The notes beneath the pieces are model-generated. The model was not told the DNA's origin. It saw nothing but the letters and a program-made list of their open reading frames with translations, and made no database searches. The position numbers and the translations under genes were made by a program. DNA of 64,000 bases from the NCBI RefSeq assembly GCF_056746865.1, contig NZ_CM163382.1. One strand, 5' to 3'. This document shows, piece by piece, positions 11,928 through 50,530 of this stretch (its first letter is position 1; each line of letters starts with the position of its first letter).

Positions 11928-12269
11928 TTACGCGACTTTCTGTTTACCGGCAATCACTCCAATAAACGCCTGCACCTGCTTTTGTTTACGCGCCGACAGT
12001 TTGCACACCTGGCGTAGCGACTGCATCAGTTCGCTCTCCTCGGCGGCGGGTGGTTGGGCGGTGAGGACAATACAGCCTTCCATCACTTTGACATCTACCG
12101 CCGTGCCAGTGGCAAAACCGGCGGCTTCCAGCCACTGACCTTTCAGGGTGATGGCGGGAATACGGCTGTAATCCGGGTAGCGACTCGCATAACCGACGGT
12201 GACATGACGGTTATTTGCCGGGGAGACTTCTGCTTCGAACGGTTGTGCAATAGAATGCGTGTCAGTCAT
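11928..12269 (-). CDS. symE: SymE, SOS-induced type I toxin (AbrB-fold RNA endonuclease-like)
   Basis: Translation [34 protein letters not shown].. (113 aa) inside the 132-aa track ORF. Confidence 0.85.
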
Positions 12270-12340
12270 AACTGCTATTCTCCAGGAATAGTGATTGTGA
12301 TTAGCGATGCGGGTGTGTTGGCGCACATCCGCACCGCGCT
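12255..12340 (+). ncRNA. symR: SymR antisense sRNA (antitoxin of symE), approximate position
   Basis: Established knowledge: SymR is encoded antisense to the symE 5-prime UTR and start codon; ends not determinable from sequence alone. Confidence 0.4.
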
Positions 12341-46672: not shown

Positions 46673-47227
46673 GAAGCACGGTTGTTTTGCGGTAGGTTAA
46701 GATCAAAATTGCGCTGATTAATCCTGGTTATCGGGAGAAGCTCGGTGATAAAAAGCGAATTATCTCTCGTCGCAAATAAATTATCACATGAATATTATCA
46801 CTATAATGAATTTATTGTTTAGCCTTTACGAATCAGGATAAAAGATAACTGGGCGCGTTTTTTAATTTTTACAAGTTAAAACTATCAGATTTTATTGAAT
46901 AAATATTGATTGTGTGATTTTGCATTCTACTGGAAGGGATATCAGTTAATTATAAATTAAATGAATGAGAATTCTGTTTTTCATTAAGTATTTCTAACAA
47001 CTTAATGTAGATATTTTAAATGTCTCCAGGCTATTTCACCAGGTTATCATTTGATGCTAACCTTCTGACACATGCAGTGGAGTTGTTGTGCAGCAGGAGT
47101 ATGCTGATATGAAAGTGAATGCTAAGGATAATTTATTCGCTTAATCTATTAATTTGCTGGAAACATTTAAGGAATGAATATCCTGAATAAACCATCATAA
47201 TTTTTAGACAGTGGATGTGGAGGAAAT
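46673..47227. promoter_or_regulatory. AT-rich divergent control region of yjjP and yjjQ-bglJ (H-NS-silenced, LeuO-activated per established knowledge)
   Basis: ~550 bp visibly AT-rich with many A/T tracts between divergent genes. Confidence 0.6.
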
Positions 47228-47953
47228 ATGTTGCCAGGATGCTGCAAAAATGGAATTGTTATCAGTAAAATACCTGTTATGCAAGCAGGGTTAAAAGAGG
47301 TCATGAGGACTCACTTCCCTGAATATGAAATAATATCCAGCGCCTCTGCGGAGGACCTTACCTTATTACAATTACGTCGTTCCGGATTAGTCATTGCTGA
47401 TTTAGCCGGTGAAAGTGAAGATCCACGTTCTGTTTGTGAACATTATTATTCTTTAATCTCACAATATCGGGAAATTCACTGGGTTTTCATGGTGTCACGC
47501 TCCTGGTATTCCCAGGCAGTAGAACTGCTTATGTGCCCTACGGCGACGTTATTGTCTGATGTTGAACCCATTGAGAATCTGGTCAAGACCGTACGTTCCG
47601 GCAATACGCACGCAGAGCGTATCAGCGCCATGCTGACCTCTCCGGCAATGACTGAAACTCATGATTTTAGCTATCGCTCCGTCATTCTCACTCTTTCAGA
47701 GCGCAAGGTACTGCGGCTATTAGGTAAAGGATGGGGCATCAACCAGATAGCTTCATTGCTTAAGAAAAGTAATAAAACTATCAGCGCCCAAAAAAACAGT
47801 GCGATGCGTCGACTGGCAATTCACAGCAACGCTGAAATGTATGCATGGATAAATAGCGCACAGGGTGCAAGAGAACTTAACTTGCCTTCTGTTTATGGAG
47901 ATGCCGCAGAATGGAACACAGCCGAATTAAGAAGAGAAATGTCGCACTCATAG
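47228..47953 (+). CDS. yjjQ: YjjQ, LuxR/FixJ-type transcriptional regulator
   Basis: 241 aa with C-terminal LuxR HTH (..[41 protein letters not shown]..). Confidence 0.85.
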
Positions 47954-48588
47954 AAAAATGCGTCATGAGTAGTATCGGTATTGAGAGTTTATTCAGAAAG
48001 TTTGCGGGTAACCCTTATAAGCTCCATACCTATACCAGTCAGGAGTCATTTCAGGATGCCATGTCGCGGATCTCGTTTGCGGCGGTCATTTTTTCTTTTT
48101 CTGCCATGAGAGGTGAGCGTAGAGAGGGATTATCTTGCCTGACTGAACTGGCGATTAAGTTTCCGCGTACCCGGCGTTTAGTTATTGCGGATGATGATAT
48201 TGAAGCTCGGCTGATCGGCTCATTGTCGCCATCACCGCTGGACGGTGTATTAAGTAAAGCGTCAACGCTGGAGATTTTTCATCAGGAACTCTTTTTGTCA
48301 TTAAATGGTGTACGTCAGGCGACCGACCGACTGAACAATCAGTGGTACATTAATCAAAGCCGAACGCTAAGCCCGACGGAGAGAGAAATATTGCGCTTTA
48401 TGTCGCGTGGCTACTCAATGACACAAATTGCCGAGCAGCTTAAACGCAATATCAAAACGATCCGTGCACATAAATTTAATGTGATGTCGAAACTGGGCGT
48501 AAGTTCTGATGCAGGGTTGTTGGAGGCCGCAGATATTCTGTTATGTATGCGGCATTGCGAAGCAAGTAATGTGTTGCATCCCTATTAA
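47911..48588 (+). CDS. bglJ: BglJ, LuxR-type regulator (RcsB partner, bgl activation)
   Basis: 225 aa with C-terminal LuxR HTH (..[43 protein letters not shown]..); overlaps yjjQ by 43 nt in another frame. Confidence 0.85.
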
Positions 48589-48625
48589 TCCGCATGATGC
48601 CGGGTTTACTTCCCCGGCAGTGCTT

Positions 48626-49829: not shown

Positions 49830-49916
49830 TGGTGCGAGGGGGGGGACTTGAACCCCCACGTCCGTAAGGACACTAACACCTGAAGCTAGCGCGTCTACCA
49901 ATTCCGCCACCTTCGC
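49830..49916 (-). tRNA. leuV: tRNA-Leu(CAG)
   Basis: 87-nt reverse complement of GCGAAGGTGGCGGAATTGGTAGACGCGCTAGCTTCAGGTGTTAGTGTCCTTACGGACGTGGGGGTTCAAGTCCCCCCCCTCGCACCA; symbol assigned by operon order. Confidence 0.9.
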
Positions 49917-49950
49917 ACAGTCATCTTACTTTTTTTGATATCGCCTCGTT

Positions 49951-50037
49951 TGGTGCGAGGGGGGGGACTTGAACCCCCACGTCCGTAAGAACACTAACAC
50001 CTGAAGCTAGCGCGTCTACCAATTCCGCCACCTTCGC
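49951..50037 (-). tRNA. leuP: tRNA-Leu(CAG), variable-arm variant (one substitution relative to its neighbours)
   Basis: Same 87-nt gene with taagaacact instead of taaggacact (plus strand). Confidence 0.88.
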
Positions 50038-50065
50038 CCAGTGCGAGCAATATCAACGTGGTTTT

Positions 50066-50152
50066 TGGTGCGAGGGGGGGGACTTGAACCCCCACGTCCG
50101 TAAGGACACTAACACCTGAAGCTAGCGCGTCTACCAATTCCGCCACCTTCGC
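50066..50152 (-). tRNA. leuQ: tRNA-Leu(CAG)
   Basis: Third identical-length copy; first gene of the leuQPV operon on the minus strand. Confidence 0.9.

Positions 50153-50269: not shown

Positions 50270-50530
<261 letters not shown>

Follow-up and report, generated by a model that had tools for sequence, protein, structure and literature searches.

The 43-nt Out-of-Frame Overlap of yjjQ and bglJ: a Very Likely Upstream BglJ Start Within a Variable YjjQ Tail

The yjjQ–bglJ Locus

The window analyzed here is a 64,000-nt stretch of DNA (NCBI RefSeq assembly GCF_056746865.1, contig NZ_CM163382.1), and all coordinates given below are positions within it. The E. coli yjjP / yjjQ–bglJ / fhuF region forms the surroundings of a pair of overlapping genes on the plus strand. 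The upstream gene, yjjQ (47228–47953), encodes 241 aa and ends at a TAG stop codon (47951–47953), as seen both in the list of open reading frames (ORFs) and in the RefSeq annotation. Pfam GerE and NCBIfam NarL-like matches describe YjjQ as a receiver-like N-terminal domain followed by a GerE/LuxR helix-turn-helix (residues 153–206). The downstream gene, bglJ (47911–48588), is recognized by the ORF list, RefSeq and the NCBIfam model NF008548, and encodes 225 aa from an ATG at 47911–47913 (M1). BglJ scores 381 bits against NF008548, for which the cut-off is 176, and carries a GerE match of its own (residues 152–203). This score, a receiver-like (βα)5 fold and the GerE domain place it in the BglJ family of RcsB-like FixJ/NarL-type regulators.

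The two coding sequences share 43 nt of the plus strand (47911–47953), comprising bglJ codons 1–14 plus one nucleotide and yjjQ codons 228–241 plus the stop codon, with yjjQ read in a frame offset by +1 from that of bglJ. The out-of-frame overlap proposed by the first-pass annotation is borne out by the ORF list and by an identical RefSeq annotation; the yjjQ and bglJ boundaries and the 43-nt overlap recur unchanged in a RefSeq E. coli chromosome with 100% identity across 1.6 kb. Of 5426 complete E. coli genomes, 5414 contain the 96-nt junction, and annotation places both genes over it. Both genes have family matches and share a strand, as expected of a genuine co-directional out-of-frame overlap. 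It is already present in public annotation and is ordinary: locus, boundaries and overlap are those of the E. coli K-12 yjjQ–bglJ operon as annotated by RefSeq/PGAP, and the sequence is no different. What is added here is cross-species evidence for the bglJ start, and evidence that the YjjQ tail rather than BglJ bears the cost of the overlap. The K-12 operon is reportedly the subject of work by Stratmann et al. in 2008 (J Bacteriol 190:926).

According to the literature, H-NS represses the yjjQ–bglJ operon, LeuO activates it, and its product BglJ acts together with RcsB. Upstream of it, the yjjP–yjjQ intergenic region (46673–47227), which contains the operon promoter region, is AT-rich, with a GC content of 0.30–0.32 compared with approximately 0.50 in the flanks and approximately 0.45 in yjjQ–bglJ. 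This composition fits the published silencing by H-NS. Within yjjQ, no sigma-70-like site was found on the plus strand between 47233 and 47911.

Other sequence features were also catalogued. Rfam returned no match in 47000–48600; elsewhere in the window, matches at the gathering score (58122–58602, 50292–50485, 62105–62181, 12264–12340 and 49833–50152) include a five-unit tandem REP-like naRNA4 array, three more naRNA4 copies and the SymR antitoxin RNA. Three minus-strand tRNA genes, which RefSeq annotates as tRNA-Leu, are also among these matches. Inside the bglJ coding sequence, a terminator-like hairpin of 10 pairs is followed by a T-run (48062–48094, plus strand). The region holds 4 terminator-like sites against 1.9 ± 1.4 in shuffles, which is not clearly above expectation, and the bglJ-internal hairpin is probably a chance occurrence.

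The Position of the BglJ Start

The yjjQ stop codon is unambiguous, and the overlap therefore depends wholly on where BglJ starts. A rival start is offered by the internal ATG of Met19 (47965–47967, plus strand), which lies 11 nt past the yjjQ stop. Within one genome, chance alone would leave a frame open for 18 codons upstream of a true start in approximately 40% of cases, so that the extension from Met19 back to M1 could easily be fortuitous and a comparative test of the start was needed. To this end, one genome per species was scanned, and the yjjQ–bglJ tandem was found in approximately 75 species of Enterobacteriaceae, from genera including Escherichia, Citrobacter, Salmonella, Enterobacter, Kosakonia, Lelliottia, Leclercia, Phytobacter, Trabulsiella, Yokenella, Atlantibacter and Franconibacter. 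A 93% identity filter left 61 non-redundant junctions.

An ATG equivalent to M1 is present in all 61 loci, followed by Glu, or by Gly/Asp in a few. Moreover, 16 of 76 loci feature an in-frame stop 0–1 codon 5′ of this ATG, such that the ORF cannot start any earlier in those loci. Codon 19 is ATG in 53 of the 61, and is replaced by TTA, CTG, TTG or GTG (Leu/Val) in the other 8, which include Trabulsiella, Yokenella and Atlantibacter. M1 is preceded by a Shine-Dalgarno (SD) region, TATGGAGA (47894–47901, plus strand), which sits within the Tyr-Gly-Asp codons of yjjQ and was located by low entropy at 47896–47901 and by the energy of its duplex with the anti-SD. Its GGAG core (47897–47900) lies 9–10 nt 5′ of the ATG, near the upper limit of usual spacings. 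The motif is conserved across the orthologous loci (UAUGGAGA, at −17 to −10 of M1). The anti-SD duplex averages −6.5 kcal/mol for M1 versus −0.6 kcal/mol for Met19, and M1 has the stronger duplex in every one of the 61 loci; in E. coli, Met19 is without an SD (+0.2 kcal/mol).

The phase of sequence conservation switches between the two genes well upstream of Met19. From 47686 to 47901 the yjjQ wobble position is the most variable, with mean entropies of 1.29, 0.41 and 0.20 at bglJ codon positions 1, 2 and 3, and the 9-nt spacer that follows (47902–47910) is mostly variable. Across bglJ codons 10–18, which begin at 47938, 27 nt before Met19, the corresponding values are 0.79, 0.27 and 1.32, i.e. 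the bglJ phase, with the second position less variable than the third in 9 of 9 codons. In the portion of these codons that lies within the overlap (47938–47952), the entropies are 1.01, 0.02 and 1.28, and it is the second codon position of yjjQ that varies most. At the protein level, even orthologues that share as little as 48% of their sequence with BglJ overall retain residues 2–18, and the same holds for residues 9–20.

Structural modeling suggests why these residues would be retained. The AlphaFold2 model of BglJ (mean pLDDT 80.8; 87 for residues 11–20) comprises a strand β1 (residues 9–14), a helix α1 (18–30), four more β-α units and the GerE helix-turn-helix, and its best fold matches in the PDB are RcsB structures (E = 4e-11). 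The predicted β1 of this receiver-like fold is encoded by bglJ codons 9–14 (47935–47952, plus strand), inside the overlap. When an orthologue profile of BglJ was compared with RcsB, a 5-residue offset placed BglJ N10–K16 on RcsB β1 (N5–D11), the reach of this alignment to the BglJ N-terminus being an extrapolation from the offset. A BglJ that began at Met19 would be missing the central receiver strand, and its folding is unlikely. Met19 itself is an internal residue of helix α1 in the model, which explains its conservation as an amino acid. BLASTP aligned BglJ and YjjQ over the helix-turn-helix only, and the N-terminal likeness of these paralogues that is apparent by eye is therefore not counted as evidence.

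If BglJ instead started at Met19 (47965), it would be a protein of 207 aa and the overlap would be an annotation artefact. The frequency of ATG at codon 19 agrees with this reading, as does the disagreement of public resources over the start: NF008548 has 207 positions that align to BglJ residues 19–225 only (47965–48585) and misses the conserved first 18 residues, including β1, while older BglJ records from S. bongori and Citrobacter likewise give shorter proteins, of 207 or 193 aa. Overlaps of more than 30 nt are also a minority among overlapping gene pairs (PMC12548453). The bglJ case thus resembles long overlaps that arise from start misprediction in its length, in the downstream ATG just past the upstream stop, and in the conflict between records and family model. 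Unlike such overlaps, however, the bglJ extension is conserved as protein and encodes a core strand, and the SD belongs to M1. Purifying selection in the bglJ phase that begins upstream of Met19, the Leu/Val codons found at position 19 where the M1 ATG is universal, the lack of an SD for Met19 and the loss of β1 from its product all count against the later start. We accordingly rejected start-site misannotation, which we regard as extremely improbable.

These comparative and structural data indicate that the upstream start M1 is very likely correct. The first-pass annotation had placed the bglJ start within the 3′-terminal part of yjjQ, in a different frame, which the universal ATG, the SD, the phase switch and β1 strongly support; it had named a BglJ start at a downstream Met after the yjjQ stop as grounds for abandoning this claim, and on that question the cross-species comparison points clearly to M1. 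A literature search found neither an N-terminal sequence of BglJ nor ribosome profiling data for its initiation site, and the operon is silenced by H-NS under laboratory conditions. In the papers on the yjjQ–bglJ operon that the search returned, a set outside the primary operon papers, the overlap and the bglJ start are not mentioned.

The survey also encountered variant and misplaced bglJ sequences. A 215-aa BglJ allele without residues 110–119, which include the predicted β5, recurs in many E. coli assemblies, among them P0003 and its relatives. The underlying 30-nt in-frame deletion lies exactly between 7-nt direct repeats, CGCTGGA (48236–48242 and 48266–48272), which suggests slippage; the 215-aa allele may be non-functional. 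Further bglJ sequences were found on a 436-nt contig assigned to Streptomyces sp. DH24 (100% identical to E. coli) and on a 966-nt contig assigned to Klebsiella pneumoniae (93% identical to E. coli), and both are almost certainly products of assembly contamination or mislabelling.

Lopsided Constraint Across the Overlap

The overlap is present in 58 of the 61 loci and ranges from 10 to 55 nt, with every length equal to 1 modulo 3: 10 nt (1 locus), 25 nt (5), 31 nt (2), 40 nt (25), 43 nt (3), 52 nt (8) and 55 nt (14). The overlap is ancient within Enterobacteriaceae. In the other 3 loci a premature yjjQ stop abolishes the overlap and bglJ is intact. These stops lie 169 nt before the bglJ ATG in Citrobacter amalonaticus, 14 nt before it in Kosakonia oryziphila and 95 nt before it in Kosakonia arachidis. 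The three yjjQ sequences could be pseudogenes or sequencing errors; the loci show that bglJ persists without the overlap.

According to the first-pass annotation, the overlap constrains both coding sequences. This holds for bglJ codons 10–18, for the SD and for the ATG, but the YjjQ tail varies, and entropy across the 61 loci revealed no conservation in the yjjQ phase within the overlap. The yjjQ Gly codon inside the bglJ SD is GGA in 52 of the 61 loci, and its wobble position has an entropy of 0.57 versus a yjjQ wobble mean of 1.29, with neighbors reaching approximately 1.9; the bglJ ribosome-binding site thus constrains yjjQ at the nucleotide level. Conservation of YjjQ extends as far as ...ELNLPSVYG(D/E), and beyond this point its tail varies in both length and sequence. 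Some tail residues are fixed by the bglJ start, where ATG-GAA read in the +1 frame yields Trp and Lys/Asn. The YjjQ tail is thus largely a passenger.

The point at which yjjQ terminates is set by synonymous codon choice in bglJ, and toggles within the segment corresponding to 47947–47970. Where Ile/Val14 of BglJ is encoded by ATA or GTA and followed by GAA, the yjjQ frame meets a TAG, giving overlaps of 40 or 43 nt (E. coli, Citrobacter). Where codon 14 is ATC, ATT or GTC, yjjQ continues as far as the TGA within ATG-AGY (Met19-Ser20), giving 55 nt; alternatively, it ends at a TGA or TAA across bglJ codons 18 and 19, giving 52 nt. The TGA at Met19-Ser20, seen in Enterobacter, Lelliottia and Kosakonia, forms a classic ATGA with an internal Met codon.

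One further position in the junction is conserved. The GA dinucleotide at −2/−1 of the bglJ ATG (47909–47910) is near-invariant across 60 species (entropies 0.33 and 0.0), amid a spacer that is otherwise highly variable, and is not forced by bglJ coding. It could reflect YjjQ Glu230 or the context of initiation.

Translational Coupling and Other Readings of the Overlap

The first-pass annotation took the overlap to imply translational coupling of the two regulators, an inference that the present data do not support. Coupling could operate by reinitiation, with ribosomes that finish yjjQ (47953) stepping back approximately 40 nt to the bglJ ATG, or elongating yjjQ ribosomes could hold the bglJ site open, making BglJ synthesis dependent on that of YjjQ. 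In favor of such mechanisms, 58 of 61 loci, drawn from many genera, retain the overlap and its frame relation, the genes form one operon with no plus-strand promoter-like site within yjjQ, and the coat–lysis gene pairs of phages fr and MS2 are coupled at −38 and −50 nt. It is also mildly suggestive that the variable spacer before the bglJ ATG has acquired no stop, given that a random spacer would, by a rough estimate, hold a stop in the yjjQ frame approximately 20% of the time; the lineages are not independent, however, and the stop-free spacer is therefore weak evidence for coupling. Against this, coupling is most efficient at spacings of −4/−1 and falls steeply with the distance between stop and start (PMC12548453), and here E. 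coli has a spacing of −43 nt, with relatives ranging from −10 to −55 nt. A scanning ribosome would take the nearest start, which is Met19 (+11 nt) rather than M1 (−43 nt), and the stop drifts over a 45-nt range (10–55 nt) with synonymous changes in bglJ codons. The bglJ start has a strong, conserved SD of its own and no inhibitory structure to unfold: its predicted RNA fold (MFE −21 kcal/mol) is no better than those of shuffles (z = 0.48), RNAalifold returned no consensus structure for the 61 junction sequences (energy 0.0), and the SD and the AUG are unpaired with mean probabilities of 0.62 and 0.51, respectively. Coupling through RNA unfolding was rejected on the grounds of these folds. Furthermore, the three species with a premature yjjQ stop keep an intact bglJ, and active BglJ is produced both from bglJ-only plasmids and from the yjjQ/bglJ-Y6::mTn10 allele, in which a mini-Tn10 insertion upstream of bglJ yields constitutive BglJ; the plasmids and the allele argue indirectly against an obligatory dependence on yjjQ translation. 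On balance, we consider it unlikely that the overlap serves coupling. A programmed −1 frameshift that would fuse YjjQ to BglJ was likewise rejected, as the yjjQ frame contains no slippery X XXY YYZ heptamer in 47894–47953, and the high variability of 47917–47934 among species also counts against such a fusion.

The short ATGA/TGATG overlaps of E. coli trp and other operons, in which the genes are coupled by termination-reinitiation (PMC12548453, PMC6728339), are also co-directional with overlapping frames, but their starts lie 1 or 4 nt upstream of the stop, whereas that of bglJ lies 43 nt upstream (10–55 nt in relatives) and has its own SD. The yjjQ stop of Enterobacter-type orthologues is part of an ATGA/TGATG, but with the internal Met19 codon. 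In the fr and MS2 coat–lysis pairs, as here, the downstream start lies tens of nucleotides before the upstream stop in another frame. Initiation at the lysis genes requires termination of coat translation, and in MS2 it depends on RNA structure as well; bglJ, by contrast, has a conserved SD, no conserved structure, and evidence of independent BglJ production.

Two related readings assign a role to ribosomes that translate yjjQ. The near-universal overlap with its fixed frame relation (58 of 61 loci), the stop-free spacer and the near-invariance of GA at −2/−1, which bglJ coding does not demand, could mean that read-through of yjjQ over the bglJ start is selected, whether for coupling or otherwise. 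Ribosome traffic on yjjQ would then set BglJ output by back-scanning reinitiation over −43 nt, by occlusion of the bglJ SD, or by reinitiation at Met19 to give a β1-less isoform, and the YjjQ:BglJ ratio would be hard-wired at translation. We regard such selection as quite improbable. The other reading holds that the locus yields two products, a full-length BglJ initiated de novo at M1 and a 207-aa form without β1, made by reinitiation at Met19, which might titrate RcsB or DNA. In most species the yjjQ stop does fall next to or on codon 19 (14 loci have ATGA, 8 have TGATG/TAATG, and in 28 the stop is 11 nt upstream), and reinitiating ribosomes favor the nearest start and can work without an SD. 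Yet the ATGA arises automatically from a conserved Met-Ser dipeptide coded ATG-AGY, Met19 gives way to Leu/Val in 8 of 61 loci, and folding of a receiver domain that lacks its central strand is improbable. The literature offered no experimental hint of a second product, and we consider the two-product reading very improbable.

A Model for the Overlap

Our preferred reading is that BglJ initiates at M1 from its own SD, mainly independently of yjjQ translation. The two genes are co-transcribed in one operon with frames that overlap by 43 nt, and in this model translation of BglJ from the ATG at 47911 would be directed by the GGAG (47897–47900) embedded in the yjjQ Tyr-Gly-Asp codons. The first 18 residues of BglJ would be needed because residues 9–14 form the central β1 of the RcsB-like receiver fold, and the overlap would exist because the YjjQ C-terminal tail is loosely constrained. 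The tail would read through the bglJ initiation region until the bglJ codons chance upon a stop in the +1 frame, such as the TAG of ATA-GAA in E. coli or the TGA of ATG-AGY in Enterobacter. Initiation of bglJ is most likely independent and SD-driven, with coupling to yjjQ translation having a modulating effect at most. Taken as a whole, this account of a real overlap, an M1 start with its own SD, a lopsided constraint and mainly independent initiation is one that we hold to be probable.

The practical value of these observations is small: they support the start of the 225-aa BglJ as the right one, and the late start found in the NCBIfam model and in older records matters for anyone cloning or modeling BglJ, which partners RcsB in relieving the silencing of bgl and leuO by H-NS. 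Translational coupling, if it occurs, would add an extra layer to the LeuO / H-NS / BglJ–RcsB circuit, although the present results do not require it. The locus also provides an example of how a long overlap may be tolerated, with a dispensable tail on the upstream protein and a stop codon that moves as the downstream gene changes synonymously.
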